A DNA stretch of 64,000 nt, taken from assembly GCA_965221835.1 (NCBI GenBank), contig OZ244916.1, forward strand, positions 329,947 through 393,946. Direction: 5' to 3'. Both the position numbers and the translations under genes were made by a program. Below, in pieces: positions 1,030 through 63,848 of the stretch. How positions within the stretch are numbered: the stretch's first letter is position 1; every line of letters starts with the position of its first letter. The DNA is from Gammaproteobacteria bacterium. Lineage in GTDB: Bacteria; Pseudomonadota; Gammaproteobacteria; Tethybacterales; Persebacteraceae. The notes under the pieces are model-generated. The model was not told where the DNA came from. It was given only the letters and a program-made list of their open reading frames with translations, and made no database searches.

Positions 1030-1420
1030 TTTTGTATAGTTATGCACGATTCGGCGGCGAAAAATGACGGCGGGGCGAGAATGGAATCGGGCGGCGGCGG
1101 AATTCCGCAAAAAAACCGCGAAATTCCGCGAAAAACCCCCCGTCATTCCCGCGAAAGCGGGAATCCATTATAGGCGATTAATTTTAGAATTCCCGCGCGT
1201 TTTTTCATAAAAAACAGCGTGAACTCGGGGATTTGTCGGCGAAAATGGATTCCCGCTTTCGCGGGAATGACAGCGGGGAAGGCGGGATTTTGTCGGCAAG
1301 AATCGGACGGCGGCGGACGGCGAAAATGACGGGCGGCGGGGGAGATTCCGATTTACATCGGAATGGTAAAAAATGACGGCGCGGCGGACGGGCGAGAATC
1401 GGGCGGCGGCGGGAAGGCGG
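1030..1420. repeat. NIME-type repeat array (RS units flanked by dRS3 ATTCCC-N8-GGGAAT inverted repeats)
   Basis: dRS3 instances attcccgcgaaagcgggaat (~1144) and attcccgctttcgcgggaat (~1249). The RS unit ...ataggcgattaattttagaattcccgcgcgttttttcat... recurs at 16570, 17160 and 48690. The palindromic cattccgatgtaaatcggaatg motif recurs as well. Confidence 0.6.
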
Positions 1421-1422
1421 GA

Positions 1423-2868
1423 TTAGAAACGATGTACGGCTTCCAGATGGAATCTGGCGTTGTTGCCGAATTCGGCGGTTTTTCGCCATTGAAATCCGGC
1501 GGAGGGGCGGATTGTCCAGCGGTTAATCCGCAAAACGCTTTCCAGATTTAGCGAGTTGTTTGTTTCGCTCTCGCCTTTGTCAAAACGGGATTGCAGATGA
1601 TAAACCGGCGATATTTCCCAAATGCCGCCCGTCAAGTTTGCGGACAGGGAAAGATTGTAATCGGCGGTTTCGCCCGCAACGAATTCCGAAAATGCCGCCG
1701 TCCACAACTCGCCTTTGTATTCGCCGCCCGATGAATAATGAAATTCGCCGAATTCGCCGTTTGCGTTTGTTTGTCCGCCGGTGTAGTACAAATGCCAATT
1801 GTCTTTGCGGAAATCCATCCGCCCGCCCGCATTTGCGAAATAGCCGATTTCGTCTACGGAATAGCCGATATCGGGCGTGAAATTAAATAGCGAAAAATCG
1901 CCGCCGGACAAAAGCATCGCCGCCGCCCCGACAACCGCAATTCCCGCCCCGATGGCAGCACCGCCGCCTGAACTGCCCGAACTGCCGCCGCCCGAACTGC
2001 CGCTGTCATCGCCCGCATTTGCGGAATTGGCGGAATTGGCGGAATTTTCGGAATTGACGGAATTGGCGGAATTGGCGGGGGTTGTCGCACAACTCGCAGT
2101 CGCCGGGTCGCAAGAATCCAACGCTTGCGCAACATCGTTTGTTTCTTGATAGTTTGCGTCAAGATGAAACTCGCCGGCATTCGGGTCGGCTTCGCCGACT
2201 CTGCCCGTGTTTTGTGCGAACGCCAAAACTCCGCTTGAATCACGATAAACGAAAACGGTTGCCAATGTATTCTTAAAACGCGAACTTAAGTCGGTGCGGG
2301 GACCGGAGATGAAAAAGCGGTCGCCCGCCTCCATCGTCCGCCGATTACCGGCGTAACCGAACATAAACAAACCCGTATTTGAATCAACCGCTTTCGTATA
2401 GGGCAACTCGCCGCCTATGGTCGTATCGTCGGGGTTGACTCTTCTTAAAATGGCGGCTGCCGCATGATAAGTATGCAAACCGGTTAAATGCGCCACACTT
2501 CCGGCAAAAGAAAAAGCGGAAACGCTCGCAACGATGGCGGTTAGCGGGTCGCTAAAAATGATTTGTCCGCCGGGTTGGGGGCGAGTAGTCGCAACTGTCA
2601 AAGTCGTGGTCTCTACAACTACCGATATGGTATCGGGTCTTCCGTCCCCGTCTATATCTACATTTACATATCTATTGCCTTGACGCAATGTCGTGCGGGT
2701 GGTGATTGTAATAATTCGGTCGCTAATGCCTGGTACATTGATGACAACCGTCGGTCTTTTCCAAACTTGTGCAACTTCCGATTCTTGTGCGGATGCGGAA
2801 GTCGCAAATCCCGCCGCCAAAACGGCAACGGCGAAAAGACGGAAAATAGCGGTTTTTATGATTTTCAT
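1423..2868 (-). CDS. Secreted surface/outer-membrane protein, paralog A: signal peptide, low-complexity (ANS)n and (GSS)n tracts, C-terminal ~160-aa domain ending ...EAVHRF
   Basis: ORF 1423..2928. The likely true start is MKIIKTAIFRLFAVAVLAAGFATSASA-QE (signal peptide). A hydrophobic Gly/Ala-rich segment (AIGAGIAVVGAAAMLL) precedes the C-terminal domain. That domain is shared with the 811-aa protein at 61539..63848 (GQTNxxGxFGxxHYxSG...ELWTAAFSE..AG.TADY.LSLSA.L.GGIW..SPVY...NRWTI.PSAGF.W........RF.). The aromatic C-terminal residue is typical of OM beta-barrel proteins. Confidence 0.6.
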   Translation of the reverse strand: MKIIKTAIFRLFAVAVLAAGFATSASAQESEVAQVWKRPTVVINVPGISDRIITITTRTTLRQGNRYVNVDIDGDGRPDTISVVVETTTLTVATTRPQPGGQIIFSDPLTAIVASVSAFSFAGSVAHLTGLHTYHAAAAILRRVNPDDTTIGGELPYTKAVDSNTGLFMFGYAGNRRTMEAGDRFFISGPRTDLSSRFKNTLATVFVYRDSSGVLAFAQNTGRVGEADPNAGEFHLDANYQETNDVAQALDSCDPATASCATTPANSANSVNSENSANSANSANAGDDSGSSGGGSSGSSGGGAAIGAGIAVVGAAAMLLSGGDFSLFNFTPDIGYSVDEIGYFANAGGRMDFRKDNWHLYYTGGQTNANGEFGEFHYSSGGEYKGELWTAAFSEFVAGETADYNLSLSANLTGGIWEISPVYHLQSRFDKGESETNNSLNLESVLRINRWTIRPSAGFQWRKTAEFGNNARFHLEAVHRF

Positions 2869-2937
2869 AATACTCTCCTGCGTGTGTGTCGTAAAACGGT
2901 ATTGTATCAGAAAACGCCGAAATGTCAACCCGGCGCA

Positions 2938-4275
2938 TCAGATGTCCAGCAAAAATTTTCGTTCCCAAGCGGTGACGACATGGCGGTAGTTTTCCAGTTC
3001 GGTGCGTTTGCATGCCACATACAAATCCACGAAACGATTGCCGAGGCGTTCGCGCAACATTTTGGAACCGCGCATTGCTTCCAGCGATTCTTCCAGCGTT
3101 AGGGGAATTCCGCGCGCCATTTCCCACGCCGCTACGGTAACCGGGGCGGTCGGTGCGATTTTGTTTTTGACGCCCATAAATCCGGCGAGTAAGGAACCCG
3201 CCACCGCCAAATACGGATTTGCATCCGAACCGCAAACGCGATTTTCCACACGCATCGCCGCCGGTGCACCGGTTTCCGGTACGCGCAATCCCACCGTGCG
3301 ATTGTTCGCGCCCCAATGATTGTTGGTATTTGGCCACGGTACATTAATGCGGCGAAACGAATTGACATTCGGTACCAGCATCGCCATAATTTCGGGCAAA
3401 TGCCGCTGCAATCCGCCCAAATAATGTTTGAACATCTGACTCATTCCGCCGTCCCGTCCGGCAAATAAGTTGTCGCCGCCGCCCCGTGCGACAACGCTTT
3501 GGTGAATATGCATTGAACTGCCGGGTTGTCCCTCCACCGGTTTCGCCATAAAAGTAGCGACCATTCCGTGTCGCACCGCCGCCTCGCGTACGCATCGTTT
3601 GAACATCATCACTTGGTCGGTCATCGCCAAGGCGTCGCCGTGCTTGAAATTGATTTCAAACTGCGCAACGCCTTCTTCGTGCGTCAATGTGTCGACCGCC
3701 AGCGATTGCGCTTCGGCAAAACGGTAAATGTCGTTAATGACCGGCTCAAATTCGTTTAAGGCATCTATGCTGAACGGTTGGCTGGAAAACTCCGGGCGAC
3801 CGGTGCGACCAACCGGCGGACGCAAGGGATTGTCGGGATTGTTGTCACGGCTGGCGAGATAAAACTCCAACTCCGGTGCGACAATCGGACGCCAGCCGTT
3901 GCGATGAAAAAAACGAATGACTCGCTTGAGAATACTGCGCGGTGCATAGCGAATAAGCGCGCCTTTTTCGCTGATTCCATCGCAAATAATCTGCCCCGTC
4001 GGTTCCGTCGCCCACGGCACCAAAAAACATCCTTCCAGCCCGGCACGCAACTCCATATCGCCGTCCGTATCATCCAAAAAATCTTCCTGTTCGCCCCAAT
4101 CGCCGGTGACGGTTTGCGCCAAGGCGGATTCGGGCATCCGCACCGAAGATTGAAGGAATTTTTCGCACGGGATAATCTTGCCGCGCGGCACTCCCGCCAA
4201 ATCGGGAATGAAAATTTCGACTTCGGTAATGGAATGATTCCGCAGCCAGTTTTTAACTTCGTTATCCAACGACAT
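2938..4275 (-). CDS. Glutamine synthetase family protein (GlnA type III / gamma-glutamyl-polyamine synthetase-like)
   Basis: 445-aa ORF with GS catalytic-domain hallmarks (GDWGEQ, ...SSMHIHQS..., NRxxxxR-type C-terminal motifs). The exact subfamily was not resolved. Confidence 0.65.
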   Translation of the reverse strand: MSLDNEVKNWLRNHSITEVEIFIPDLAGVPRGKIIPCEKFLQSSVRMPESALAQTVTGDWGEQEDFLDDTDGDMELRAGLEGCFLVPWATEPTGQIICDGISEKGALIRYAPRSILKRVIRFFHRNGWRPIVAPELEFYLASRDNNPDNPLRPPVGRTGRPEFSSQPFSIDALNEFEPVINDIYRFAEAQSLAVDTLTHEEGVAQFEINFKHGDALAMTDQVMMFKRCVREAAVRHGMVATFMAKPVEGQPGSSMHIHQSVVARGGGDNLFAGRDGGMSQMFKHYLGGLQRHLPEIMAMLVPNVNSFRRINVPWPNTNNHWGANNRTVGLRVPETGAPAAMRVENRVCGSDANPYLAVAGSLLAGFMGVKNKIAPTAPVTVAAWEMARGIPLTLEESLEAMRGSKMLRERLGNRFVDLYVACKRTELENYRHVVTAWERKFLLDI

Positions 4276-9948: not shown

Positions 9949-10254
9949 ATGCCATTTGTAATTGATAACCAAGATCTTTTTTTAGAACATCTCGCGAATC
10001 AAGGAGTTGGCGATAACGACACGGTTCACGGCGCAACACCGAGATCGTATGTCGCCTATCTTAAGTCGGCGGCAAAAATTCTCAACTGCGACATATCCGC
10101 GGATTTGTTTCCAAATTTAAATCGGAATGAATTAGAGGCGGTTTACGACCGTATAAAACGCAATCAACAGCACGCGCAATACGCCGCAGGAACGCGAAGG
10201 AATGCCGTTTCCGCAATGCGACATTATTTTGAGTTTTGCGGGGGAATTCTCTAA
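9949..10254 (+). CDS. Small hypothetical ORF wedged between carA and carB, low GC
   Basis: 101-aa ORF. It starts 2 nt after the carA stop and its TAA overlaps the carB ATG (TAATG). GC is visibly lower than the flanks. No recognisable domain. Confidence 0.35.
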
Positions 10255-13200
10255 TGCCAAAACGAAACGACATAAACAGCGTTCTCGTTCTCGGTGCGGG
10301 ACCGATTATTATCGGGCAGGCGTGTGAGTTTGATTATTCGGGAACGCAAGCGTGTCGTGCGTTGCGCGAGGAGGGAATTCGCGTTGTTTTGTTAAATTCC
10401 AATCCGGCGACAATTATGACCGACCCCGAAGTTGCCGATGCAACTTATATTGAACCGGTGGATGCGGATACGGCGGCGGCGATTATTGCGGAAGAAAAAG
10501 TAGACGCGGTTTTGCCGACAATGGGCGGACAAACCGCATTGAATTGCGCGATGGAACTTTTTCGGCGCGGCGTTTTATTTCCGCAAAATCCGCATGGCGC
10601 AAAACTCATCGGCGCAGGCGCAAACAGCATTCGTGCCGCCGAAGACCGCGGCGAATTCAAACGCGCGATGGAAGAAATCGGGCTGCAATGCGCGCCTTCG
10701 GCACTCGTTTCCGACATTGCGGATGCCGAACGGCGGGCGGGCGAAATCGGTTTTCCGATTATCTTGCGCCCTTCATTTACACTCGGCGGCGGCGGCGGCG
10801 GAGTCGCCTACAATCGCGAAGAATTTCTCGCGCTGGTCGCTCGCGCCCTCGCCGAATCGCCCTCCGGCGAAGTATTGCTGGAACGCTCCTTGCTGGGCTG
10901 GAAAGAGTTTGAAATGGAAGTCGTGCGCGATTCCGCCGACAATTGCATCATCATCTGTTCCATTGAAAATGTCGACCCGATGGGCGTGCATACCGGCGAT
11001 TCGGTCACCGTCGCCCCGGCGCAAACCCTGACCGACAAAGAATATCAGCGAATGCGCGATGCCTCATGCGCAGTATTGCGAAAAATCGGCGTAGATACCG
11101 GCGGCGCAAATGTGCAATTCGCCGTCAATCCCGAAGACGGCGAAATGGCGGTAATAGAAATGAATCCGCGCGTTTCGCGTTCTTCGGCACTCGCCTCAAA
11201 AGCAACCGGTTTTCCGATTGCAAAAGTCGCCGCAAAACTCGCCATCGGCTATACCTTGCCCGAAATCGCCAACGACATTACCGGCGGCACACCCGCATCG
11301 TTTGAACCGTCCATAGATTATATTGTCGTCAAAATACCGCGATTTGATTTTGCCAAATTCGCGCCCGCCGCCGATACGCTCACAACACAAATGCGTTCGG
11401 TCGGCGAAGTCATGGCAATCGGCGGCACTTTCGCCGAGGCGTTGCAAAAAGCATTGCGCGGGCTGGAAATCGGCGCGAACGGATTTGAAACGATATTGCA
11501 TTATGCACAATTAAACGAAGACGAAATACGCGAACGACTTTCAACCCCCCATTCCATGCGGCTGTTCGCCGTTGCCGATGCGATGGCGGGAAGCGAAATC
11601 GCAAAACGCGAACCGTTCAAAATGGAAGAAATTTACAAACTCACGCGCATCAATCCGCGCTTTTTGGACGAAATGCGCGAAATCGTTTTAATGGCGGCAC
11701 AAATCGCGCAAACCCGCCTCGCCGATACCGCCGCGAACGAAATGCACGAATGGAAACGACTCGGTTTTTCGGATGCGCAAATCGCCCGTTTGTCCGACAC
11801 CGGCGACTCGCCGCACACAGCCGAAACCGCGCGAAAAAAACGGCGCGCGTTAAACATTCATCCTGTATATCGCCGCATAGACACTTGCGCGGGCGAGTTT
11901 GCAACCGAAACCGCGTATTTATATTCCACTTATTTTTACGACCGCGCGCATCCCGCATGCGAGTTGCGCCCGCAATCCGGCGACAATAAAATTCTCATTC
12001 TCGGCGGCGGTCCAAACCGAATCGGGCAAGGCGTGGAGTTTGATTATTGTTGCATTCACGGCGTCACCGCATTGCGACAATCCGGTTTTGAAACATTAAT
12101 GATCAATTGCAATCCGGAAACGGTGTCCACCGATTATGACATTGCCGACCGGCTGTTTTTTGAACCGCTTACCGCCGAAGATGTGCTGGAAGTTTGTCGC
12201 CGCGAAATGCCGCGCGGCGTTGTCGTACAATTCGGCGGACAAACGCCGCTTTCCATCGCACGCGAACTGGAAAAAGAAGGCGCGCCGATTATCGGCACTT
12301 CCGTAGACGCAATAGATTGCGCCGAATCGCGCCGCCGCTTTCAACAATTAATTAAAAAATGCGGATTGCGACAACCCGAAAACGCGATTGTCAATTTTTC
12401 CGGCGATATTCAATCCGACAATTCCGCCGTCCCGCAAAAAACCGAAGAAGCGGCGCAAGCGGCGGCAAATATCGGCTATCCGTTGGTCGCCCGTCCGAGT
12501 TATGTACTCGGCGGCAAAGCGATGCGAATCGTACACAACGAAGACGAGTTGCGCGCCTATTTTTCCGCGCCGTGGTTGCAAGATTTTGACGGCGATATTT
12601 TGTTAGACAAATTTCTCGTCGGCGCAGTAGAAGTAGATGCGGACGCAATTCGCGATTCGGCGGGCGCATGCGTCATCGCCGGCGTGATGGAACACATAGA
12701 ACACGCCGGCATACATTCCGGCGATTCGGCGTGTTGTCTACCGCCGCATTCTCTGCCGGCGGCAATTGTCGACGAAATTAAAAGACAAACAACCGCGCTC
12801 GCAAACGCGCTCGGTGCAGTCGGAATGATGAACGTACAATTCGCCGTCAGCCAAAACGAAGTGTATGTTTTGGAAGCAAATCCGCGCGCCTCGCGCACCG
12901 CACCTTTCGTTTCCAAAGCGACCGGAATGCCGGTTGCCAAAATCGCGGCGCGGGCAATGGCGGGAATGTCGTTGCGCGCACAAAACATTCGCGAAATACC
13001 GCCGCCCGCCCGTTTTGCGGTAAAAGAAGCGGTTTTTCCGTTTGACAAATTTTCGGATGCCGATGTACTCCTCGGTCCAGAAATGAAATCTACCGGTGAG
13101 ACAATGGGAATCGCCGAAAACTTTCCGCGCGCGTTTTTGCAAGCACAAGAAGCCATTCAGCCGATGCCGCGCACCGGCACGGCGTTTATCAGCGTCCCCG

Positions 13201-16219: not shown

Positions 16220-16224
16220 AACCC

Positions 16225-17400
16225 CGCCGCCCCGCCGATTCCCGCCTTTCCGCCGCCCGTCATTTTTCGCCTCCCCGACTCGCCCCTGACATTTGTCGGG
16301 GGCGAAACAAGTTCGGCGGAGTTTACTCCGCCCCCCGCAATTTCCGCCTTTCCGCCGCCGTCCGATTCCCGCCTTCCGCCGCCCGTCATTTTCAATTTTT
16401 ACCATTCCGATGTAAATCGGAATCTCCCCCGCCGCCCGATTCCCGCCTTTCCGCCGCCGCCCGATTCTCGCCGACAAAATCCCGCCTCCCCGCCGTCATT
16501 CCCGCGAAAGCGGGAATCCATTTTCACCGACAAATCCCCGCGTTCACGCCGTTTTTTAAGAAAAAAACGCGCGGGAATTCTAAAATTAATCGCCTATAAT
16601 GGATTCCCGCTTTCGCGGGAATGACGGGGGGGGGGGGGGCGCGGAATTTCGCGGTTTTTTTGCGGAATTCCGCCGCCCCCTCATTCCATTCCCGCGAACG
16701 CGGGAATCTGTCTGCGTCGCAAAGCGGCGGTAATTTGCATCGCAAAGCGATGCGTACAGATTCCCGCGTTCGCGGGAATGGAAGGTTCTTTTTCCCGCCG
16801 CCCCTCCGCCGGATTTCAATGGCGAAAAACCGCCGAATTCGGCAACAACGCCAGATTCCATCTGGAAGCCGTACATCGTTTCTAATCATTAATTCCCCGC
16901 CCCCGACATTTGTCGGGGCGAAATCCGCCGCAGCAGTTCACTGCCGCAAACCCCGGCATTTCCCGCCTTCCCGCCGCCCGTCATTTTTTACCATTCCGAT
17001 GTAAATCGGAATATCCCCCGCCGCCCGTCATTCTCGCCGTCCGCCGCCGTCCGATTCTTGCCGACAAAATCCCGCCCTCCCGCCGTCATTTTCGCGAAAG
17101 CGGGAATCCATTTTCGCCGACAAATTCCCGCGTTCACGCTGTTTTTTATGAAAAAACGCGCGGGAATTCTAAAATTAATCGCCTATAATGGATTCCCGCG
17201 TTCGCGGGAATGACGGGGGGTTTTTCGCGGAATTTCGCGTTTTTTTGCGGAATTCCGCCGCGTTCGCCGGAATGGAAAACTTTATTTTTCGGTCGTTTTA
17301 CGGAAAAATGGAAAACTTTATTTTCGGCGGAATTCCTCCGCATTCCGATGAAAATCGGAATCTCCGAATCGCAAACTAAATCCCGATTGCGATTCCTTCA
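16225..17400. repeat. Large NIME array (multiple RS units and dRS3 repeats); contains a G14 tract and an orphan gene fragment
   Basis: dRS3 copies at ~16499, 16604, 16688, 16760 and 17192. The palindromes ccccgacatttgtcgggggcg and cattccgatgtaaatcggaatc recur. Units are shared with 1030-1420, 48640-48830 and 61340-61535. Confidence 0.65.
16794..16877 (+). pseudogene. Orphan 3'-terminal fragment of the paralog-A surface protein (encodes ...RPSAGFQWRKTAEFGNNARFHLEAVHRF*), inverted relative to the full gene
   Basis: About 100 bp (16782-16880) are the exact reverse complement of 1420-1518, the last codons plus stop of the CDS at 1423..2868. Identity ends a few nt past the stop and ~20 nt into the coding sequence. 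It is embedded in the NIME array. Confidence 0.6.
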
Positions 17401-37255: not shown

Positions 37256-37576
37256 AAGAATTTGCCGAATTAATGCGGGAATTCATAGATTTATGCGTTT
37301 CAGACGCCGAATTACTGCGGAAAATAAAAGTGCAGGCGATGAACGGGTTTTGTATGAGAGTTTTGCCGTCCTATCCGCTGACATTTCTGCCCCGCCTGCA
37401 ACGGATTCGTAAAAATGATGCCGTCCGGATATATTATATTCAATCAAGTTCCACTTGCGACACGAGAATCAGCAAGATGACGAGGAAAATAAAGCCGATA
37501 TACATCCCTTTCATTTGGCGGAGATTATAGCATTAAATATCGTTGACAAGTCAAACTATCTGCTATAATTCCGCCC

Positions 37577-40500
37577 ATGAGATTTTTCCGGCGAATTTTG
37601 GCGATTCTTTTCGCCCTTTGCGGGGCGGAGGCGGCATTATCGCAAGAAATTACGATTAGTTTGGATGTTGCGGCAAAACAGATAACGGTTTTATCGCCGA
37701 GACCGACAAGGCAATTTAGATATTTTTGGCGGTGTGCGGAAACTAACCCTATCACAGGCGATGAAATCGAACTTGAATTTCTTCAGCGGGATACAAACCT
37801 ACCAAATTCTCAATTTTTAACTTTCGCCGAAATTGAAGAACATCTTAACGATAATATCAAATGCGATCATATTTCTTTGGCTTATGTGAGAAATGCTAAT
37901 GAAGTAATACGCAGCAATACTCTCCGAATTGTGGGCGTGCGGCGAGAAGGAAATCCGCCGCATGTCACCGTCAACATTGACCATATCGGCGATGGATATA
38001 CCGAAGGCGATGTTTATAGTTTCAATGTGGTATACACGGATTTATTTGGAGTCGTGCAAACCGTACGCAACGATGAAGAAGAAAGATTTAATGAGGTTTT
38101 TGGAAATGTGCAGTGGTTTAAGACGGGAATTAGAAGCAAGGATAACTTGATTGCATTTCCGTCATCTTCGTCTACTGATAATCTTTTTGTAAATCCGCCC
38201 TCTCCGTTTCCAGAAAGAAGATTTATTTTTTTACCAGTACGGGATATTGAATGTACGGGCGAATCTTGCGAAACTGAACTTATGCCGACATTGGGCGATG
38301 CCATAGCATATCAACCGATTGAAAGCCCGCCTCCACCACAATATCCTCATACCTATACACTATCGCACAGTCATTTTTCCGATTCGTACTACACCAGAGA
38401 TAACGGAGAAATAATATATTTAGACCATTTCGCCGTTCGGATAACAGACAAATGGGAACACACAGAACAACCATTTTCGGGGCTAACGCAATATGGAGTT
38501 TCTTGGGGATTTATTCCGAGAAACGAACCGACCGAAGTTTCTCAACTGGAACTTTATAGGAGTATTGACCCGTTCCAATTTTCCGGAACTCCGGCAGAAG
38601 AACCAGTTTCTTTCGGCGAATTTGCATTCGGTAGCGATAAAGAAAAACTTTACAACTTATTCAGCATTTCCGGAGACCTCAACAATGGCATTAAGCAAAG
38701 TACCAGATTTATATGGCAACACCGGATTAACGGCGGCGAATGGATAACTACGGAAGATGAAAGGATTGTCAGAGGAACTTATTTTACAAGTCCCGATCAT
38801 TTTGTCGGGGCGAAAATAGGGGACGAAATTCAAATTCGTGGCATATTGGATGTTGAAGACGGATGGGGATTGCGAAACTATTTATTTTCGCCCACATTAT
38901 CGCACACCGATATGCCGCCGACGGGAGATATGCAATTCATAGAGACCGGATTGCATGCAGAAGCGACGATAACCACCTCGCTGGATGAAATAGAAGACCC
39001 GGACGGAGAAATTGATGTACTTTCCTATCGTTGGCAAGCGGGAAATGGTACGGTTTTTACCGATGTACTTTTTCAAGAATATGATGAGGCAAACCGGAGA
39101 TTATTTGCCGACAGTATTAGAAATGTTCCGTACATTTTGGACGCATCCGTTTTCAATCAAGAAGGCAACAGCGGAATGCGAGTAATTGCGGAATTGACCG
39201 ACTCATTTTTTGGGCAGGCAACTATAACTTCCGGTTTCTTTCTGGTGAATCCCCCGACCGAAGGAACCGTTTCCATAAACGGCAATCCGTTATTTTCGGA
39301 CGGCGAAATATACACATTAACGAATGTTGACGAATTAACGGACGGCAACGGAATCGGCAGATTTAGTTATTCATGGTATGTAAGCATAGACGGCGGCAAT
39401 AGTTATGACAGAAGAGGGGCTTTTGGTACAACTTTCACATTAAAAGCATCTCACATTGCAGAGGCAAATGCAGATACGCCCGTATTGTTGCGTGCCGATG
39501 TGGTACATACCGATGCGGACAGATACACACAAACGCTTGTGGCTTTTTTTGAACAAAATTTTCCGACACAAGGCGAAATCACAATTGACGGCAATCCGAT
39601 GTTTGCGGCGGGCGAAATATACACCGCAATCACCGCCGAATTATCGGACAGCAACGAAATCGGCGGATTTACTTATCAATGGCTTGTGAGTTTTGATGAC
39701 GGCAATAACTATAATGAAATTGCGGGCGAGACGGGAGAAACTTACACGGCGGACACGGCGGATTTTGCGGGGGCGAATCCGAACACGCCGATATTTTTGG
39801 GCGTTTCGGCGGTGCATACCGATTTGGACGGCTACGCACAAACGATTACGGCATTTTTGGAACAGGATCTTCCGACACAAGGCGATATTGTTTTGAATGC
39901 TATTGCGAATCCTTTGGTGCTTGGCGAAGTCAAGTTTTCGGTGAATGTTGACGCATTGACGGACGGCAACGACATCGGCGATTTTGCATATCAATGGTTT
40001 GCGAGTATTGCCCGTGGTGCAGATTACAATCCGATTTCGGCGGCGACCGACAGATCGTACATATTGGACCGGTCGGATTTTGCGGGGGCGGCGGCGAATG
40101 AACCGGTGCGAATTTCGGTTTCGGTTGTGCATACCGATTTGGCGGGATATGAACAATCGTTCGGAGATTTTTTCGTGCAGAATCCTCGGACAGAAGGCGA
40201 GATAACAATTGACGGCAATCCGATGTTTGCGGACGGCGAAATATACACCGCAATCACTGCCGCATTATCGGACAGAAACGGAATCGGCGATTTTACTTAT
40301 CAATGGGTTATAAGTTTTGACGGCGGCAACAACTATAACACTAACGGAATTTTGGGAATCGATTCTACTTACACTTTGCGGGCGGAAGATATTGCGAATG
40401 CCGATGAAAACATTCCCGCCCTGCTGGGTGTTGCGGCGGTGCATACCGATTTGGACGGAAACACACAAACGTTAACGGCATCTTTTTTGCAAGATATTGC

Positions 40501-43500
40501 CGGCACAGGCAGCGTTTCAATTTCGGGTGCGAATTCATTTGCGGCGGGCGAAAAATATACAGCGATAACAAACATTGCGGATGCAAACGGAATCAGCGTT
40601 TTCGTTTATTCATGGCATGCAAGTACGGACGGCGGAAATAACTATACGCAAATAACAGATGCGAATTCGGAATCGTACACGCTTGCATTGTCAGATTTTG
40701 CCGGTGCAACTTCGGCGAATCCGGTGCATCTTTTGCTTTCAGTTGTGCATACCGACATGGGCGGATTTTCGGAGTTTTATTTGGCAACGCTAATTCATTC
40801 CGACACGGCGGCGGGTGGAAGTTTGGGAATTGAAATTCAAAACGGCGTAATTGCGGAAGATGCGATTGTGGAATTAAATACGGCGGGAATTTCGGACATA
40901 AACGGCGGGGGAATCGTTTCGCATTCGTGGCATTTGGATAACGGTGCGGCGATTGTCGGCGAAACTTCGGCGACTTATATTTTGTCATCGGCGAATTTAA
41001 CTTTGTCGGAAATTCGCAACGGCGTTTTACATTCGGAAGTTTTATATCGGGATTCGTTCGGTTATGAAACAAGATTTTCCATCACGCTATTCGGCGAAGG
41101 CGATGATGAAGAATACGATCCGGACAATCCGAATGAGTTGGATTCTATGGGAACGGGAACGGTTGCGATTTCGGGAACGATTTCGTTTGCGGCGAATGAA
41201 AGATATACGGCGGACATTTCGCAAATCGCTCCGAATGACGCAAACGGCGAAGGAGATTTCGCATATTCATGGCATACGAGTACGGACGGCGGAACGAATT
41301 ACAATTTAATATCGGGTGCGAATTCGGAATCGTACACGCTTGCATTGTCGGATTTTTCCGGTGCAACTTCGGCGAATCCGGTGCATCTTTTGCTTTCGGT
41401 TGTGCATACCGATTTCGGCGGATTTGATCAAAGTTATCTGGCGACTTTGATTCATTCCGACACGGCGGCGGGCGGAAGTTTGGGAATCGGAATTCAAAGC
41501 GGCGTAATTGCAGAAGGTGCGATTGTGGAATTAAACACGGCGGGAATTTCGGACATAAACGGCGGCGGAATCATTTCGCATTCGTGGCATTTGGATAACG
41601 GTGCGGCGATTGTCGGTGCAACGGCGGCGACTTATATTTTGTCATCGGCGAATTTAACTTTGTCGGAAATTCGCAACGGCGTTTTACATTCGGAAGTTTT
41701 ATATCGGGACGATTTCGGTTATGAAACGAGATTTTCCATCACGCTATTCGGCGAAGGCGATGATGAAGAATACGATCCGGACAATCCGAATGAGTTGGAT
41801 TCTTTGGGAACGGGAACGGTTGCGATTTCGGGAACGATTTCGTTTGCGGCGAATGAAAAATATACGGCGGACATTTCGGACATCGCTCCGAATGATGCAA
41901 ACGGCAAAGGGACTTTTACATATTCATGGCATACGAGTACGGACGGCGGAAATAACTATACGCAAATCACGGGGGCGACATTGGAGTTGTATACGCTTGC
42001 ATTGTCGGATTTTGCGGGTGCGAATGCGAATGCGGAAGTGCATTTGCGAGTTTCGGTTGTGCATACCGATTTCGGCGGATTTGATCAAAGTTATCTGGCG
42101 ACTTTAATTCATTCCGACACAGCGGCGGGTGGAAGTTTGGGAATTGGCATTCGGGACGGAATCATCGCCGAAGATGCGGTTGTGGAATTAGACACGGCGG
42201 GAATTTCGGACATAAACGGCGGGGGAATCGTTTCGCATTCGTGGCATTTGGATAACGGTGCGGCGATTGTCGGTGCGACTGCGGCGACTTATACATTGCA
42301 AGCGGCGAATTTAACTTTGTCGGAAATTCGCAACGGCGTTTTACATTCGGAAGTTTTGTATCGGGATTCGTTCGGCTATGAAACAAGATTTTCCATCACG
42401 CTATTCGGCGAAGGCGATGATGAAGAATACGATCCGAACAATCCGAATGAGTTGGATTCTTTGGGCACGGGAACGGTTGCGATTTCGGGGACGATTTCGT
42501 TTGCGGCGAATGAAAGATATACGGCGGACATTTCGGACATCGCTCCGAATGACGCAAACGGCAAAGGAGATTTCGCATATTCATGGCATACGAGTACGGA
42601 CGGCGGAACGAATTACGATTTAATTTCGGGGGCGACATTGGAGTTGTATACGCTTGCGTTGTCGGATTTCGCCGGTGCGAATGCGAATGCGGAAGTGCAT
42701 TTGCGAGTTTCGGTTGTGCATACCGATTTCGGCGGATTTGATCAAAGTTATCTGGCAACTTTGATTCATTCCGACACGGCGGCGGGCGGAAGTTTGGGAA
42801 TTGAAATTCAAAGCGGCGTAATTGCCGAAGATGCGATTGTGGAATTAGACACGGCGGCGATTTCGGACATAAACGGCGGCGGAATCGTTTCGCATTCATG
42901 GCATTTGGATAACGGTGCGGCGATTGTCGGCGCAACGGCGGCGACTTATATTTTGTCATCGGCGAATTTAACTTTGTCGGAAATTCGCAATGGCGTTTTA
43001 CATTCGGAAGTTTTATATCGGGATTCGTTCGGTTATGAAACGAGATTTTCCATCACACTATTCGGCGAAGGCGATGATTCCGTCTCGCCGAATCCCGATG
43101 ATCCGAATCGTCCCGGCACGACGACAAATCCGGTTGACCCCGGCGACAATCCGGGCGGCGAAGATCCGGACAATCCGGGAAACATTTTCGGCACAGGCAG
43201 CGTTTCAATTTCGGGTGCGAATTCATTTGCGGCGGGTGAGAAATATACAGCGATAACGAACATTGCGGATGCAAACAGAATCGGTACGGTTTCATATTCA
43301 TGGCAAGCGAGTACGGACGGCGGAACGAATTACAATTTAATAACGGATGCGAATTCGGAATCGTACACGCTTGCGTTGTCAGATTTTTCCGGTGCAACTT
43401 CGGCAAATCCGGTGCATCTTTTGCTTTCAGTTGTGCATACCGACATGGGCGGATTTTCGGAGTTTTATCTGGCAACTTTGATTCATTCCGACACAGCGGC

Positions 43501-46500
43501 GGGCGGAAGTTTGGGAATTGAAATTCAAAGCGGCGTAATTGCGGAAGGTGCGGTTGTGGAATTAGACACGGCGGGAATTTCGGACATAAACGGCGGGGGA
43601 ATCGTTTCGCATTCGTGGCATTTGGATAACGGTGCGGCGATTGTCGGCGAAACTTCGGCGACTTATATTTTGTCATCGGCGAATTTAACTTTATCGGAAA
43701 TTCGCAACGGCGTTTTACATTCGGAAGTTTTATATCGGGATTCGTTCGGTTATGAAACAAGATTTTCCATCACGCTATTCGGCGAAGGCGATGATGAAGA
43801 ATACGATCCGGACAATCCGAATGAGTTGGATTCTTTGGGCACGGGAACGGTTGCGATTTCGGGAACGATTTCGTTTGCGGCGAATGAAAAATATACGGCG
43901 GACATTTCGGACATCGCTCCGAATGATGCAAACGGCAAAGGGACTTTTACATATTCATGGCACACGAGTACGGACGGCGGAACGAATTACAATTTAATAT
44001 CGGATGCGAATTCGGAATCGTACACGCTTGCATTGTCGGATTTTGCGGGTGCGAATGCGAATGCGGAAGTGCATTTGCGAGTTTCGGTTGTGCATACCGA
44101 TTTCGGCGGATTTGATCAAAGTTATCTGGCAACTTTGATTCATTCCGACACAGCGGCGGGCGGAAGTTTGGGAATTGAAATTCAAAGCGGCGTAATTGCC
44201 GAAGATGCGATTGTGGAATTAGACACGGCGGGAATTTCGGACATAAACGGCGGGGGAATCGTTTCGCATTCGTGGCATTTGGATAACGGTGCGGCGATTG
44301 CCGGCGAAACTTCGGCGACTTATACTTTGCAAGCGGCGAATTTAACTTTGTCGGAAATTCGCAATGGCGTTTTACATTCGGAAGTTTTGTATCGGGATGA
44401 TTTCGGTTATGAAACAAGATTTTCCATCACACTATTCGGCGAAGGCGATGACGAAGAATACGATCCGGACAATCCGAATGAGTTGGATTCTATGGGAACG
44501 GGAACGGTTGCGATTTCGGGGACGATTTCGTTTGCGGCGAATGAAAAATATACGGCGGACATTTCGGACATCGCTCCGAATGATGCAAACGGCAAAGGGA
44601 CTTTTACATATTCATGGCATGCGAGTACGGACGGCGGAACGAATTACGATTTAATTTCGGGGGCGACATTGGAGTTGTATACGCTTGCGTTGTCGGATTT
44701 TGCCGGTGCGAATGCGAATGCGGAAGTGCATTTGCGAGTTTCGGTTGTGCATACCGATTTCGGCGGATTTGATCAAAGTTATCTGGCGACTTTGATTCAT
44801 TCGGATACGGCGGCGGGCGGAAGTTTGGGAATCGGAATTCGGGACGGAATCATCGCCGAAGATGCGGTTGTGGAATTAGACACGGCGGGAATTTCGGACA
44901 TAAACGGCGGGGGAATCGTTTCGCATTCATGGCATTTGGATAACGGTGCGGCGATTGTCGGCGAAACTTCGGCGACTTATATTTTGTCATCGGCGAATTT
45001 AACTTTGTCGGAAATTCGCAACGGCGTTTTACATTCGGAAGTTTTATATCGGGATTCGTTCGGTTATGAAACGAGATTTTCCATCACACTATTCGGCGAA
45101 GGCGATGATTCCGTCTCGCCGAATCCCGATGATCCGAATCGTCCCGGCACGACGACAAATCCGGTTGACCCCGGCGACAATCCGGGCGGCGAAGATCCGG
45201 ATAATCCGGGAAACATTTTCGGCACAGGCAGCGTTTCAATTTCGGGTGCGAATTCATTTGCGGCGGGTGAGAAATATACAGCGATAACAAACATTGCGGA
45301 TGCAAACAGAATCGGTACGGTTTCATATTCATGGCAAGCGAGTACGGACGGCGGAACGAATTACAATTTAATAACGGATGCGAATTCGGAATCGTACACG
45401 CTTTCGCTGGCGGATTTTGCCGGTGCAACTTCGGCAAATCCGGTGCATCTTTTGCTTTCAGTTGTGCATACCGACATGGGCGGATTTTCGGAGTTTTATC
45501 TGGCAACTTTGATTCATTCCGACACGGCGGCGGGCGGAAGTTTGGGAATTGAAATTCAAAATGGCGTAATTGCGGAAGATGCGATTGTGGAATTAGACAC
45601 TGCCGGAGTTTCGGACATAAACGGCGGGGGAATCGTTTCGCATTCGTGGCATTTGGATAACGGTGCGGCGATTGTCGGGGCGGATGCGGCGACTTATACA
45701 TTGCAAGCGGCGAATTTAACTTTGTCGGAAATTCGCAACGGCGTTTTACATTCGGAAGTTTTATATCGGGATTCGTTCGGTTATGAAACAAGATTTTCCA
45801 TCACGCTATTCGGCGAAGGCGATGATGAAGAATACGATCCGAACAATCCGAATGAGTTGGATTCTATCGGCACGGGAACGGTGGCGATTTCGGGAACGAT
45901 TTCGTTTGCGGCGAATGAAAAATACACGGCGGACATTTCGGACATCGCTCCGAATGATGCAAACGGCGAAGGAGATTTCGCATATTCATGGCATGCGAGT
46001 ACGGACGGCGGAACGAATTACGATTTAATTTCGGGGGCGACATTGGAGTTGTATACGCTTGCGTTGTCGGATTTTGCCGGTGCGAATGCGAATGCGGAAG
46101 TGCATTTGCGAGTTTCGGTTGTGCATACCGATTTCGGCGGATTTGATCAAAGTTATCTGGCAACTTTGATTCATTCCGACACGGCGGCGGGCGGAAGTTT
46201 GGGAATTGTCGCCGCCGGTTTGATGGCGGGCGATTTGGTGACGGCGGATGCGGCGGGATTGACGGACGCAAACGGGGCGTTGACAATTTCATATCGCTGG
46301 CAAACGGGCGAACGAAATACGCCGGAAAGTTTTGCGGATCTTGTCGGCGAAACGGAAGCGGTTTATACAATTTATGCGGATGATTATGATTCCGATTCGC
46401 GAGATTCGTTGCGGCTGATTGCAAGAACGGCGGATCCGTTCGGCGGCGAGACGCAAATTACGAGTGCGATATTGCCGATCAATCGCGAAACCGAAGGGCG

Positions 46501-57382: not shown

Positions 57383-57613
57383 ATTCGCGGCGCGGAATTC
57401 TAACTATGCCATTTCCGTGAAGGCGGGAATATTGTCAATCCGCAGAATCCGCAGAAGCGAGGGGCGACAATAAACTGCGGCACGAGAGAAAACTTCCCGC
57501 ATCAAATGCTCGGATGTGGTTTTTTTGTTGCAGGTTTGTGTGTGCTGATGGGGCGGGGGCGGGATTTGGGGGGATTTTTTTGTGCAGCGCAAAAATATGC
57601 TATACTTTTCGCC

Positions 57614-60507: not shown

Positions 60508-60532
60508 GTTTTTACTTCCGGAGAAAATAAAA

Positions 60533-61276
60533 ATGACAAAAAAAACAGCATTGATTACAGGCGGATTGGGCGGCATCGGCACGGCAATTTGTCGCCGTTT
60601 GCGTAGCGAAGATTACGCAGTCGCCACAACATACATTCATAACGGTCCCCGTTTGGAAAAATGGCTTGCCGACCGCAAAGCGGAAGGTTATGAAGATTTC
60701 CATCCCTATTTGTGCGACATCACCCGCTGGGAAGATTGCGTTGCATTGGGCGAAAAAATAGAAAAAGATTTGGGCGGCGTGGATGTATTAGTCAACAACG
60801 CCGGAATCACCCGTGACGGTCTTTTTCGCAAAATGACTCCGCAAATGTGGGACGAAGTTATGGCGACAAATTTGGATAGCGTTTTTTATGTCAGCCGGCA
60901 GTTTGTGGAAGGAATGACAAAACGAGGTTTCGGTCGCATCATCAACATTTCTTCGGTCAACGGACAAAAAGGGCAATTCGGGCAAGTCAACTATTCGGCG
61001 GCAAAAGCGGGAATGCACGGTTTTACCAAGGCACTTGCGCAAGAAGTCGTCAAAAAAGGCGTGACGGTCAATACGATTTCGCCGGGCTATATCGGTACCG
61101 AAATGGTGAAAGCGATTGCCGAAGAAGTTCGCGAAAAAATTCGTGCGCAAATTCCGGTCGGTCGTTTCGGCGAACCAGACGAAATCGCCCATATCGTCTC
61201 ATTCCTCGCCGCCGAAGAATCCGCCTTCATCACCGGTGCAAACATCGCCGCAAACGGCGGACAGCACATGTTTTGA
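60533..61276 (+). CDS. phaB: Acetoacetyl-CoA reductase (SDR)
   Basis: ALITGGLGGIGTAICRRL (TGxxxGxG), NNAGITRD, catalytic YSAAKAG. SD ggaga. Confidence 0.85.
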   Translation: MTKKTALITGGLGGIGTAICRRLRSEDYAVATTYIHNGPRLEKWLADRKAEGYEDFHPYLCDITRWEDCVALGEKIEKDLGGVDVLVNNAGITRDGLFRKMTPQMWDEVMATNLDSVFYVSRQFVEGMTKRGFGRIINISSVNGQKGQFGQVNYSAAKAGMHGFTKALAQEVVKKGVTVNTISPGYIGTEMVKAIAEEVREKIRAQIPVGRFGEPDEIAHIVSFLAAEESAFITGANIAANGGQHMF

Positions 61277-61296
61277 TAGTTTGGATTTTGCAAAGA

Positions 61297-61336
61297 AAAT
61301 GGCGGACGGGATTTTATTTCCCGCCCGCCTTTTTTG
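61297..61336 (+). terminator. Rho-independent terminator after phaB
   Basis: ggcggacgggattttatttcccgcccgcc followed by ttttttgtttt. Confidence 0.5.
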
Positions 61337-61339
61337 TTT

Positions 61340-61535
61340 TAATATGCGGCGGAATATCGCTTCTTCCTCGCCCCCGACATTTGTCGGGGGCGAAACAAGT
61401 ACGGCGGAGTTTACTCCGCCCCGCAATTCCCGATTTCCCGCCGCAATCTATCGTTCGCGGAAAATTCCAGATTTTGCAGCAGTAAACTGCTGCGGCTGAT
61501 TTCGCCCCCGACAAATGTCAGGGGCGAGAAATTAA
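61340..61535. repeat. NIME-type repeat block / REP-like palindromes between phaB and the paralog-B surface protein gene
   Basis: gcccccgacatttgtcgggggcg and the inverted copy gcccccgacaaatgtcaggggcg flank ...ggcggagtttactccgcc.... Same family as 16285-16330 and 16890-16925. Confidence 0.5.
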
Positions 61536-61538
61536 GAA

Positions 61539-63848
61539 TCAGAAACGATGCACCGCATTTATCTGAAATCTTCCGCCATTCGCAAAATCTGCGGCATTTT
61601 CCCATCTAAATCCCGCAGACGGGTGAATCGTCCAGCGATTGTAATGCAAAACGCCTTCCAGATTTAACTCGTTTTGCGTTTCGGTTTGTATGCCGAAATC
61701 GGATTCTTTCCATTCGGAATGCATCCGGTAAACCGGCGACAAACTCCAAATCCCGCCTCGCAAATCCGCCGACAACGACAAATCATAATCGGCAGTTTTG
61801 CCCGCAATAGATTCCGAAAATGCCGCCGTCCAAATCTCGCCATTGAACTTCGCCCCGGATTCGTAATGCAAATCTCCGAATTTTCCGTCCGTATTCGTCT
61901 GTCCCGCCGACCAATACAAATCCCATTCTCCTATTTCGTATTTCGCCCGACCGCCGAAATGTGCAGAATATCCGCTTTCGCTAAATGCATAACCCGCATC
62001 GGGCGAGAACGAAAATGCCCGAACATCGCCGCTGTGGAAATAATGCACAATCGCAACCATCCCCAAAATTCCGCCGACAACGCCCGCAACTTTCGCACTT
62101 TCTTGTGCGTCGCCCGAACTCTCAACAACCAACAAAATCCGAGGCACTTCCAAATCGCCGTAAAATATCTGATTCTCGCCGCCGGCAACAACCACAACAA
62201 TCAGCCGGTCAGTTTCAACATCAAAACCGTCCGGCATCGCCGGAAATCCCTCACTGCCAAAAACTTGCAAATCCGCACAATCGGGAACCGCAAAACTATC
62301 AGAAGCGGCAGTTCTCCGCATCGCACAACCGTTCGCCGTGTCGCCATTTTCGGCAATTTGCGGTTGCGATTCTCTTGCGGCGGCAACAGCCGAATCGTTT
62401 CGTTCAAGCGGAATCCCGCAAATTTCCGCAACTTCTTGCCGGTTTTCGCTAAATGCAAATCCCGTTTGCCATCTTGCGTTTTCGCATGAGTCGGCGGTAT
62501 AAGTCGCCGAAATAAATGCCGACCCCGCCAAAACTTCGGCGGCAGAAACGCAAATACCGCCGCTATTCGCCGGTTCAAAAACTTGCATATTATCGCAATC
62601 TTCGGCAGTCCGAGGTTCGCATATTTTATCGGCATCGTTTAACGATTCCGTTTCGCCGCAAACCGGATTTACGCAAACGCCGTTTTCGGCAGTTTGTTCG
62701 CCCTCGCAATCCGAAGTCACAAGCGGACGACATTTGTCGGTTTCGCTATCGTCAAAAATCGGCATCGCAACGCCATAAACCGAAAAACATTCCGCATCGC
62801 CATCTGCAATTGTCGGCAGACGGCAGTTGCCGGTCGCTATTGCGGCGGAATCCATATCGTCAAAAATCGGAAATGCTGCCGGACATTCGCCCATTTCGCC
62901 CGCCGCCCGACACATTCCGTCATCGCCTAATATCGGAGTCGCTTCCATAGATGCACAATCCGATGCGTTTCTTTCGCACATTGTCGGATTTACTCTTGCG
63001 GAAAATCCGGTTAGGCAATCGCAGTTGCCGTTGTTTAGTTGCGTTGTTGTTGTATCGCAACTCGGATTTTCGCAAAGATTATTGACGACGGTTTGAATTC
63101 CGATGCAATCGTTATTTGCGGGCGTGCGAAGGTCGCAAGTAGACGGCGTATTTGCTTCATTAAAATATTCTGTGTTCAAACAATCCGATGCTTGCAATAA
63201 TCTGCAATTTACTTCGTCATCCGAAATATAACCGGTTGCACATTGAACCGGTTGAAATCCGAAAGCGTCTCTTGTTAGCGTGTCGGTTCTTTGCCAATTT
63301 GATTCAATAAGAAAAAATTGAGTTGCGGTTTTGTCCGCTTGCGGGGCATTTGTCGGGTCGGCGGCAGTCGGCAAAACATCGCCTTCTCCTCCCGCTACAA
63401 ATAATTCAGTGTTGCCCGCTTTTCTATATGTTCGTACGGAAATGCGAAATTCAATGGGTGCACCGGCAATATAGTTATCTCGTAAAATGACAACATCTCC
63501 CGCCCTTATTTCTCGTTTTGTGTCAAAGCCCGTGCAAACAGCATTAAATTCCGGCAAAACAGCGGTTATTGAAGGCAAATTCCCACCGTCTAATCGCCCG
63601 TCGCTTGTTCGTATACATGCAAACGCCAATATATGACTGCTTGCACCTGCAAGATCTCTCGAAATTTGCTGAATAGAATTATTAAAATTAAATGATTGCC
63701 TTGTCGTACTAAAAGCAATTATATTCTGCGTTCCAACATCGTAAAAAACTCTCGCACTTGCGGGAGTCGTAACTTGTGCATTTGCGGATGTAAATCCCGC
63801 CGCAAAAAAGACGGCGAAAAGAATGATTTTATTGATTGTATTTTTCAT
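61539..63848 (-). CDS. Secreted Cys-rich surface/outer-membrane protein, paralog B (769 aa): signal peptide, Cys-rich central region, C-terminal ~160-aa domain ending ...NAVHRF
   Basis: SD gaggag before MKNTINKIILFAVFFAAGFTSANA-QV. The central region has over 40 Cys residues. The C-terminal domain is colinear with paralog A (1423..2868) and is again preceded by a hydrophobic Gly-rich segment (AKVAGVVGGILGMVAIV). Confidence 0.6.
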   Translation of the reverse strand: MKNTINKIILFAVFFAAGFTSANAQVTTPASARVFYDVGTQNIIAFSTTRQSFNFNNSIQQISRDLAGASSHILAFACIRTSDGRLDGGNLPSITAVLPEFNAVCTGFDTKREIRAGDVVILRDNYIAGAPIEFRISVRTYRKAGNTELFVAGGEGDVLPTAADPTNAPQADKTATQFFLIESNWQRTDTLTRDAFGFQPVQCATGYISDDEVNCRLLQASDCLNTEYFNEANTPSTCDLRTPANNDCIGIQTVVNNLCENPSCDTTTTQLNNGNCDCLTGFSARVNPTMCERNASDCASMEATPILGDDGMCRAAGEMGECPAAFPIFDDMDSAAIATGNCRLPTIADGDAECFSVYGVAMPIFDDSETDKCRPLVTSDCEGEQTAENGVCVNPVCGETESLNDADKICEPRTAEDCDNMQVFEPANSGGICVSAAEVLAGSAFISATYTADSCENARWQTGFAFSENRQEVAEICGIPLERNDSAVAAARESQPQIAENGDTANGCAMRRTAASDSFAVPDCADLQVFGSEGFPAMPDGFDVETDRLIVVVVAGGENQIFYGDLEVPRILLVVESSGDAQESAKVAGVVGGILGMVAIVHYFHSGDVRAFSFSPDAGYAFSESGYSAHFGGRAKYEIGEWDLYWSAGQTNTDGKFGDLHYESGAKFNGEIWTAAFSESIAGKTADYDLSLSADLRGGIWSLSPVYRMHSEWKESDFGIQTETQNELNLEGVLHYNRWTIHPSAGFRWENAADFANGGRFQINAVHRF

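Follow-up and report, generated by a model that had tools for sequence, protein, structure and literature searches.

A predicted ten-strand C-terminal domain with a preceding hydrophobic helix as a candidate outer-membrane anchor of an amplified gammaproteobacterial protein family

Type Va autotransporters (PF03797; NalP, EspP, AIDA-I) are built from a Sec signal, an N-terminal passenger of variable size, a helix, a short turn and a C-terminal amphipathic β domain with an aromatic end. They have no dedicated partner gene, and multi-copy families such as Chlamydia Pmp and Rickettsia Sca are found among them. In the type Vc anchors (YadA_anchor, PF03895), a hydrophobic helix rich in small residues immediately precedes the membrane strands and the C-terminal residue is again aromatic. 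Here we describe a protein tail in a 64,000-nt stretch of gammaproteobacterial DNA (contig OZ244916.1, positions 329,947 to 393,946, assembly GCA_965221835.1; below, the window), which is shared by two genes of the window, A and B, and by a large family of proteins elsewhere. It resembles type Va in the order of all these elements, in the lack of a partner gene and in its multi-copy expansion; it resembles type Vc in the helix ahead of the strands, in the aromatic end and in that several chains are possibly needed for one barrel. We see an even chance that the tail is an uncatalogued type of outer-membrane anchor or translocation unit, autotransporter-like, on variable and often Cys-rich surface proteins.

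Both genes had been proposed in a sequence-only reading of the window. The list of open reading frames (ORFs) and the translations confirm that they are real, lie on the minus strand and end where that reading had placed them. The features of gene A, whose product runs from signal peptide through N-terminal passenger module, low-complexity ANS/GSSGG linker, hydrophobic helix and ten-strand β domain to the stop, are as follows.

1423..2868, minus strand: gene A, 481 aa, likely start ATG 2868 (ORF list and translation)
2901..2928, minus strand: sigma-70-like promoter of gene A, TTGACA-16-TACAAT, 11/12, with extended TG (consensus match only)
2788..2868, minus strand: Sec-type signal peptide, aa 1-27 (...TSASA/QESE; read from the sequence)
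2083..2586, minus strand: N-terminal passenger module, aa ~95-262 (BLASTP and iterated family search)
2017..2078, minus strand: 9-bp coding microsatellite, in frame, 6.9 units, ANSANSVNSENSANSANSAN, aa 265-284 (Tandem Repeats Finder)
1963..2003, minus strand: 15-bp repeat and Gly/Ser linker GSSGGGSSGSSGG (Tandem Repeats Finder)
1909..1962, minus strand: hydrophobic Gly/Ala-rich helix, aa 303-320, GAAIGAGIAVVGAAAMLL (AlphaFold2 and family-wide conservation)
1426..1896, minus strand: C-terminal β domain with ten predicted strands, aa 325-481, ends AVHRF (BLASTP, AlphaFold2 and column statistics)

The product of gene B is longer; its order is signal peptide, N-terminal module, Cys-rich region, pre-anchor module, helix, β domain and stop.

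61539..63848, minus strand: gene B, 769 aa, likely start ATG 63848 (ORF list and translation)
63777..63848, minus strand: Sec-type signal peptide, aa 1-24 (...TSANA/QVTT; read from the sequence, near-identical leader in many members)
63234..63701, minus strand: N-terminal passenger module, aa 50-205 (iterated family search)
62352..63233, minus strand: Cys-rich central region (translation)
62127..62366, minus strand: membrane-proximal pre-anchor module, aa ~495-574 (comparison of family passengers)
62037..62096, minus strand: hydrophobic Gly/Ala-rich helix, aa 585-604, AKVAGVVGGILGMVAIVHYF (BLASTP and family conservation)
61542..62015, minus strand: C-terminal β domain with ten predicted strands, aa 612-769, ends AVHRF (comparison with gene A)

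BLASTP aligns the last 191 residues of A and B with 95 identities (50%, E 3e-61). The common block consists of an 18-20-aa Gly/Ala-rich hydrophobic helix, at aa 303-320 in A and aa 585-604 in B, and a Phe-terminated domain of ~155 aa that ends with AVHRF in both proteins, so that the shared domain and the hydrophobic segment ahead of it stand as the sequence-only reading had described them. Its further statement that the block fits no nameable family is also borne out. Neither full protein has a Pfam or NCBIfam match at E≤1 (Pfam 2025 copy, NCBIfam 20.0), and searches of the PDB sequences with two profiles of the domain yield chance-level matches only. In particular, neither PF03797 nor PF03895 matches the two full proteins (hmmscan, E≤1) or any of 51 family domains (E≤10). 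In the Pfam scan of these 51 domains at E≤10, the best three sub-threshold matches are Porin_10, Phenol_MetA_deg and MipA (5/12 member matches), all of them outer-membrane barrel families. No described ten-strand autotransporter or new type V subtype that matches the tail was found in the literature. Judged by these comparisons, the tail domain is undescribed in Pfam, NCBIfam, the PDB sequences and the literature searched.

A word-index search with the tail retrieves 23 proteins, all unnamed or 'hypothetical' and all from metagenome-assembled genomes (MAGs) or ENA assemblies. Protein A itself is found as an exact match, a called gene amid housekeeping genes on the 1.35-Mb ENA metagenome contig ctg52280_66x_l (ERZ25072152); no record was found when the exact product of gene B was looked up. 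The IlvD protein encoded in the window has 99% identity to a protein of a 3.2-Mb contig and 79-84% identity to its counterparts in gammaproteobacterial MAGs. A profile built from 22 tails was searched against 1.84 billion cluster representatives and matches 256 clusters at E≤1e-3, 215 at ≤1e-10 and 81 at ≤1e-30. In almost all cases the match runs to the very C-terminus of the protein, whose length ranges from 160 to 7188 aa; the last residue is F in 130/171 members and L in 31/171 (161/171 F or L). When 185,579 species representatives were scanned with sequence patterns, 55 loci were found, 53 of them in MAG_seacave_91 (JBPCXA01) and two in MAG_seacave_22; close-subfamily patterns were used, so the scan sets no bound on the taxonomic range and 53 loci is a minimum for JBPCXA01. 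Six-frame analysis of the 55 loci gives 57 intact ORFs, each of which reaches the end of the domain. The sea-cave MAG is fragmented, and many of its contigs break inside or beside family genes. No other gene recurs beside the 55 loci, which indicates that the family uses general machinery and has no dedicated partner. Another organism has two family genes within 10 kb (864-2243 and 10001-10819) on a 96-kb ENA contig (L057), and a DsbA-like gene is located between them at 2630-3379.

Two AlphaFold2 runs were made on the tail. The first, made with 22 sequences, covered the last 195 aa of A and gives a helix (19-34) followed by ten strands, with a predicted local distance difference test score (pLDDT) of 77. 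For the last 162 aa (51 diverse sequences) ten strands are again obtained, with a mean pLDDT of 94.0 and a predicted TM-score (pTM) of 0.77. The strands are amphipathic and 9-16 residues long, and the loops have 1-9 residues. The domain is too small for a classical 12-strand autotransporter barrel, as had been noted before, and has no detectable homology to PF03797; the earlier guess of an 8-strand barrel finds no support in either of the two independent runs. Column statistics of 119 tails reveal strict alternation in all ten strands between an aromatic/aliphatic face and a polar/charged face, the latter rich in Arg, Asp, Glu, His, Ser and Gly. Of the ten strands, 9-10 have a conserved aromatic residue at their predicted periplasmic end (F62, F87, W92, Y118, W123, W151, Y182, the invariant W185, and F215 in 215-column numbering). 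The C-terminus of outer-membrane proteins is periplasmic, and therefore the strand ends with the conserved aromatics must be the periplasmic ends. An aromatic girdle of this kind is typical of outer-membrane proteins. Together with the even number of amphipathic antiparallel strands, the C-terminal Phe-type β-signal and the Sec leader, it completes the generic features of an outer-membrane β-barrel.

Foldseek searches of the PDB with both models return only outer-membrane β-barrels among the top 50 matches and no soluble fold; lipocalin, fatty-acid-binding protein (FABP) and avidin-type barrels are absent from these lists, and so are 8-strand barrels. The tail thus behaves as a domain of the outer-membrane barrel type that the sequence-only reading had considered. 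The best matches are BtuB (22 strands), general porins (16), Occ channels and ScrY (18, query TM-score (TMq) 0.59), with TMq in the range 0.5-0.59, and each alignment covers about half of a 16-22-strand barrel. In the list for the pLDDT-94 model the first 8-12-strand barrel is PcoB at rank 32, none of that size exceeds TMq 0.38, and OpcA and TMB10 do not appear among the top 50. The first model was compared with OpcA and the designed 10-strand barrel TMB10_163 and reaches only TMq 0.26-0.29 with root-mean-square deviations (rmsd) of 13-18 Å. A closed ten-strand barrel, with a radius of ~10 Å, could not superpose that well on a wall of 20 Å radius. The TM-scores and this simple geometry indirectly point to an open sheet of gentle curvature as the shape of the monomer model. 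Whether such a sheet would close alone or with other copies we regard as about evenly balanced. Mean-field direct coupling analysis and mutual information with average product correction (174 sequences, effective number 77) were applied to the closure between strands 1 and 10 and to helix contacts, and their signal is dominated by indels and phylogeny.

The helix ahead of the domain was analysed in 85 non-redundant members. Its median length is 18 aa (~27 Å), 39% of its residues are Gly or Ala, and a recurring motif, IG-x-G-x4-G, forms a face of small residues. With a hydrophobic moment of 0.51 against a mean hydropathy of 1.87 it is not amphipathic; in most members the mean Kyte-Doolittle value over 17 residues is ~1.9-2.5. 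Trp or Tyr is found at its C-terminal end, and strand 1 starts 5-7 residues later. The 15 residues before the helix contain on average 1.0 Lys+Arg and 1.8 Asp+Glu, and the 15 residues after it 0.18 and 2.2. This acidic flank is the opposite of the positive-inside arrangement and argues against an inner-membrane stop-transfer anchor. With a median of +1.5 kcal/mol for the summed Hessa free energy, the helix is a marginal Sec stop-transfer signal. As far as sequence statistics can tell, the helix fits a membrane span that shares its periplasmic interface with strand 1. The predicted lumen is rich in Arg, Asp and Glu, so the hydrophobic helix probably does not occupy the pore, which is where classical autotransporters have theirs. 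We consider it more likely that the helix lies in lipid, next to the wall of the barrel, or at the seam between protomers than in the charged lumen.

From these features we infer an outer-membrane location, dependence on the β-barrel assembly machinery (BAM), surface exposure and the helix position of a tail that would work as follows. The protein would be exported by Sec and its signal peptide cleaved. The general BAM/TAM (translocation and assembly module) machinery would insert the last ~155 residues into the outer membrane as ten long amphipathic β-strands that are joined by very short loops and end with a Phe. The glycine-faced hydrophobic helix of 18 residues would cross the outer membrane and be linked to the passenger by the Gly/Ser linker. 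The passenger, made of an N-terminal module, optional Cys-rich repeats and an optional pre-anchor module, would be shown on the cell surface, since a helix that crosses the outer membrane places it outside with the topology of an autotransporter.

Several observations weigh against this anchor model. The predicted lumen face, rich in Arg, Asp and Glu, would poorly suit a hydrophobic helix in the pore, and to our knowledge a lipid-exposed α-helix is rare in the bacterial outer membrane. A ten-strand barrel with a filled lumen cannot pass a passenger, so that a BamA-hybrid or shared-barrel state would be needed. Many passengers are Cys-rich (3-9.5% Cys) and a DsbA-like gene is present in a related genome; type V secretion is normally blocked when disulfides form in the periplasm. 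Finally, the TMq values of 0.5-0.59 to halves of 16-22-strand barrels, as opposed to 0.26-0.29 to OpcA/TMB10, suggest that the ten strands of the monomer model do not close into a barrel.

The last point leads to a structural variant of the same model, in which open ten-strand sheets from two or more protomers jointly build one barrel of ~20 (or 30) strands, with the glycine-faced helices packed against each other in its interior or next to it, like a scaled-up trimeric autotransporter anchor. The sequence-only reading had also named a trimeric-type translocator, and the superpositions on halves of larger barrels lend indirect support to a shared barrel. The fit of the pLDDT-94 model to BtuB, porins and ScrY, the lack of any 8-12-strand barrel above TMq 0.38, the poor superposition of OpcA and TMB10_163, a pTM that is low given a pLDDT of 94, and the conserved IG-x-G-x4-G face of the helix all point in this direction; the helix ahead of YadA-type anchor strands is also Ala/Gly-rich. 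However, the variant is deduced from TM-scores, no shared barrel of 2×10 or 3×10 strands is known, two or three helices are far from enough to fill the lumen of a 20-30-strand barrel, and the curvature in AlphaFold2 may simply be wrong. We therefore regard it as possible, on the improbable side of the balance. A fuller version, which we hold to be rather doubtful, is a new type V-like class: ten-strand protomers that do not close alone would pair, possibly across paralogs, into a ~20-strand barrel. Once the passenger is across, the helix would be released laterally from a BamA-hybrid intermediate; it would span the outer membrane either in lipid or at the seam of the protomers. The dozens of paralogs per genome would then display their Cys-rich, eukaryote-like ectodomains as a combinatorial and variable surface coat.

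Another explanation keeps the tail in the outer membrane, as in OmpM or a reversed OmpA, with the variable part in the periplasm and the hydrophobic segment in the inner leaflet. A Cys-rich passenger would suit oxidative folding in the periplasm, with a DsbA-like gene near a family member, and it is not obvious how passengers as long as 7000 aa would get through a ten-strand barrel whose lumen is charged. On the other hand, the uniformly hydrophobic, non-amphipathic helix of 18 residues fits a full span and not an interfacial helix, and the extreme size range, repeat modularity, paralog expansion and conservation of leader plus anchor around a variable middle are hallmarks of surface-exposed variable proteins. 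This explanation is unlikely. A type I inner-membrane protein with a Sec stop-transfer helix, a periplasmic passenger and a cytoplasmic soluble β-barrel with an aromatic core is very improbable: the Kyte-Doolittle values lie in the range of inner-membrane helices and the hydrophobic/polar alternation also fits a soluble barrel with a hydrophobic core, but the flanks (Lys+Arg 0.18 against Asp+Glu 2.2 after the helix, with more positive charge before it) break the positive-inside rule, the Hessa sum is +1.5 kcal/mol, the strands of 9-16 residues carry an aromatic ring at one end, the top 50 Foldseek matches are all outer-membrane proteins with no lipocalin, FABP or avidin-type barrel, and 161/171 members end with Phe or Leu.

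Some other types of anchor were rejected directly. There is no lipobox Cys for a lipoprotein. A PEP-CTERM/GlyGly-CTERM-like sorting signal consists of a helix and a basic cluster at the C-terminus, while here ~160 conserved residues and an acidic flank follow the helix. A 4-strand YadA-type anchor is excluded by the ten predicted strands and the lack of a PF03895 match. The small 8-strand outer-membrane anchors (OmpA_membrane PF01389, OMP_b-brl PF13505, Ail_Lom, Opa) give no profile match to this ten-strand tail and their folds are absent from the Foldseek top 50. A closed ten-strand barrel of the omptin/OpcA type superposes poorly (OpcA TMq 0.26-0.29, TMB10 0.28), and OmpT/Pla is absent from the top 50.

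While the tail is conserved, the passengers are modular. Across the family both gene ends are conserved and the middle is variable; Gly/Ser linker, helix and β domain are always present. N-terminal Sec-type leaders are common among members, and the leader MKNTINKIILFAA..AAGF.TSANAQ is kept in many of them. Many paralogs (P0028-P0077) and gene B (63777-63848) have nearly one and the same signal peptide, MKNTINKIILFAAVFFAAGF.TSANAQ. The passengers of A and B had been called unrelated. This does not hold: A 109-244 aligns with B 43-189 (25% identity, E 0.004, BLASTP), and an iterated search within the family brings together 28 members, namely A (~95-262), B (50-205) and 26 others. Outside the family, a word-index homology search finds no homologue of the gene A passenger aa 29-261.

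The pre-anchor module is found in 51 family passengers, in 49 of them directly before linker and helix, and it is present in B and absent in A. Its two-Cys pattern in the family is C.[IM]R....P.C..LFG..GFP...DRL.V..VA.G.NQIF; in gene B it reads ...C.MR...PDC.DLQVFG..GFP...DRLIVVVVAGGENQIF..., and it has no Pfam match. Inspection by eye of a 7188-aa member shows units of the form C..I...LCS[DE]LFG, similar to the pre-anchor, which recur internally (internal repeats: P0109, P0118). Cys-rich middles (3-9.5% Cys) are frequent among the members and show C-x-C-P-x-G and epidermal growth factor (EGF)-like spacing, and neither these middles nor six large family members reach the Pfam gathering threshold. 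Gene B protein contains 28 Cys in total across aa 78-524, and an EGF-like C-x-C-x2-G-F-x8-C motif is located in its Cys-rich region at 62976-63023; no Pfam EGF match is found for gene B.

In gene A, the in-frame coding microsatellites of 9 and 15 bp noted before are both real, although the 15-bp repeat lies just outside the interval 2020-2090 that had been given for them. Tandem Repeats Finder reports 88% matches between the 9-bp units, and 1.9 copies of the 15-bp unit, which encodes GSSGG, at 1975-2003. Both units are multiples of three, so only the length of the linker can change and never the reading frame. In P0030, the sole near-identical ortholog of gene A found, the number of repeat units is equal and only substitutions are observed (12 differences in a 482-column alignment).

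The sequence-only reading had counted two paralogs. A and B are confirmed, and a third, A-like copy survives as a 3' remnant. Its protein is ~90% identical to A and its 3' flank is that of gene A at 85-95% identity (85% over 467 nt). The remnant is embedded in an array of interspersed repeats at 16224-17365, and units of this array also adjoin genes A and B.

16790/16798..16885, plus strand: remnant of a third, A-like family gene, last 29-31 codons and TAA (translation and nucleotide comparison)
1075..1420, unstranded: interspersed repeat block directly 3' of gene A, with two dRS3-like inverted repeats (1145, 1249)
61288..61535, unstranded: interspersed repeat units directly 3' of gene B, common to the 16.2-17.3 kb array
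1145, 1249, 16498, 16603, 16688, 16760, 17192, 48748: copies of the dRS3-like inverted repeat

The dRS3-like inverted repeat ATTCCCGC-N4-GCGGGAAT has eight exact copies in the window against 0.01 expected, two of them 3' of gene A and five within the 16.2-17.3 kb array. Its consensus is the same as that of Neisseria dRS3/NIME, while the host here is gammaproteobacterial. The claim that both genes abut NIME arrays holds only in part. For B, a scan of the window finds no adjoining repeat of the exact form ATTCCCGC-N4-GCGGGAAT, and it is other units of the array that are shared. The location of the remnant inside the repeat array and the match of its flank to that of gene A suggest, at the level of sequence, that a deletion or recombination at the array repeats produced it. 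The dozens of intact paralogs, the conserved ends with variable modular middles, the truncated copy and the flanking repeats together suggest a lineage-specific, massively amplified family of variable surface proteins, adhesin- or antigen-like.

The surroundings of the two genes were also inspected. The sigma-70-like promoter stands 33 nt upstream of the gene A ATG, and a terminator-like hairpin of the upstream glutamine-synthetase-like gene (2901-2936, minus strand) overlaps it. By this overlap of hairpin and near-consensus promoter, gene A appears to be its own transcription unit. Downstream of gene A, 437-598 and 939-1006 match 37927-38088 and 37561-37628, at the start region of a giant ORF, in inverted orientation with 77-85% identity, and may be a fragment of a second copy. 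This ORF (37577-48538, plus strand, 3653 aa) has fragmentary Pfam matches only (K319L-like PKD, LpxD-type hexapeptide, MATH) and is followed by the dRS3-like repeat at 48748; it was considered as a family member and rejected, as it has no match to the tail domain. Adjoining gene B, at 57506-61276 on the plus strand, are ORFs for a polyhydroxyalkanoate (PHA)-synthase-like protein (609 aa), a thiolase-like protein (391 aa) and a short-chain reductase-like protein (281 aa), which follow one another and, by their translations, look like a phaC-phaA-phaB cluster.

Compared with the described systems, the tail differs from type Va in size and strand number (~155 aa and ten strands versus ~250-300 aa and twelve strands), in the nature of the helix (uniformly hydrophobic and Gly-rich, with a predicted charged lumen, versus a polar pore helix) and in the passengers, which are often Cys-rich modules instead of β-helices. 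It differs from type Vc in having ten strands per chain, whereas the 70-100-aa type Vc anchor has four, and no coiled-coil stalk is evident. With the ten-strand barrels OmpT/Pla, OpcA and TMB10 it shares the strand number and the β-meander topology of the outer membrane. However, these barrels have neither an N-terminal passenger nor a helix, and the loops of the tail are minimal (1-9 aa). Thus, the tail is not in any known type V class tested.

If the tail is an outer-membrane anchor, it would be a compact ~180-aa addition to the few ways in which diderm bacteria attach large surface proteins. A membrane-spanning hydrophobic α-helix fused to a β domain would bear on the handling of α/β hybrids by BAM, and the family would bear on the way in which the outer membrane is crossed by passengers that reach ~7000 aa and are in many cases rich in Cys. 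As a minimal anchor whose loops are very short, the tail could also become a scaffold for surface display. The family is invisible to Pfam and NCBIfam, so its genes are now annotated 'hypothetical'; with a family profile they could be recognised as a major component, probably exposed at the surface and evolving fast, of an uncultured lineage of marine gammaproteobacteria.

In its genomic organisation the family resembles Helicobacter Hop, Chlamydia Pmp, Neisseria Opa and Anaplasma Msp2/p44, in which a conserved leader and anchor enclose a variable middle in dozens of paralogs and in which truncated copies, flanking repeats and low-complexity coding repeats are also found. The Giardia variant-specific surface proteins (VSPs) provide an analogy only, with Cys-rich ectodomains on a conserved membrane anchor. 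There is no homology to Hop, Pmp, Opa, Msp2/p44 or VSPs and no evidence of switching, silent cassettes or phase variation, and the coding repeat units of gene A are multiples of three. With their constant ends and changing middles, the members of the tail family are candidate variable surface proteins whose organisation parallels that of these paralog families.

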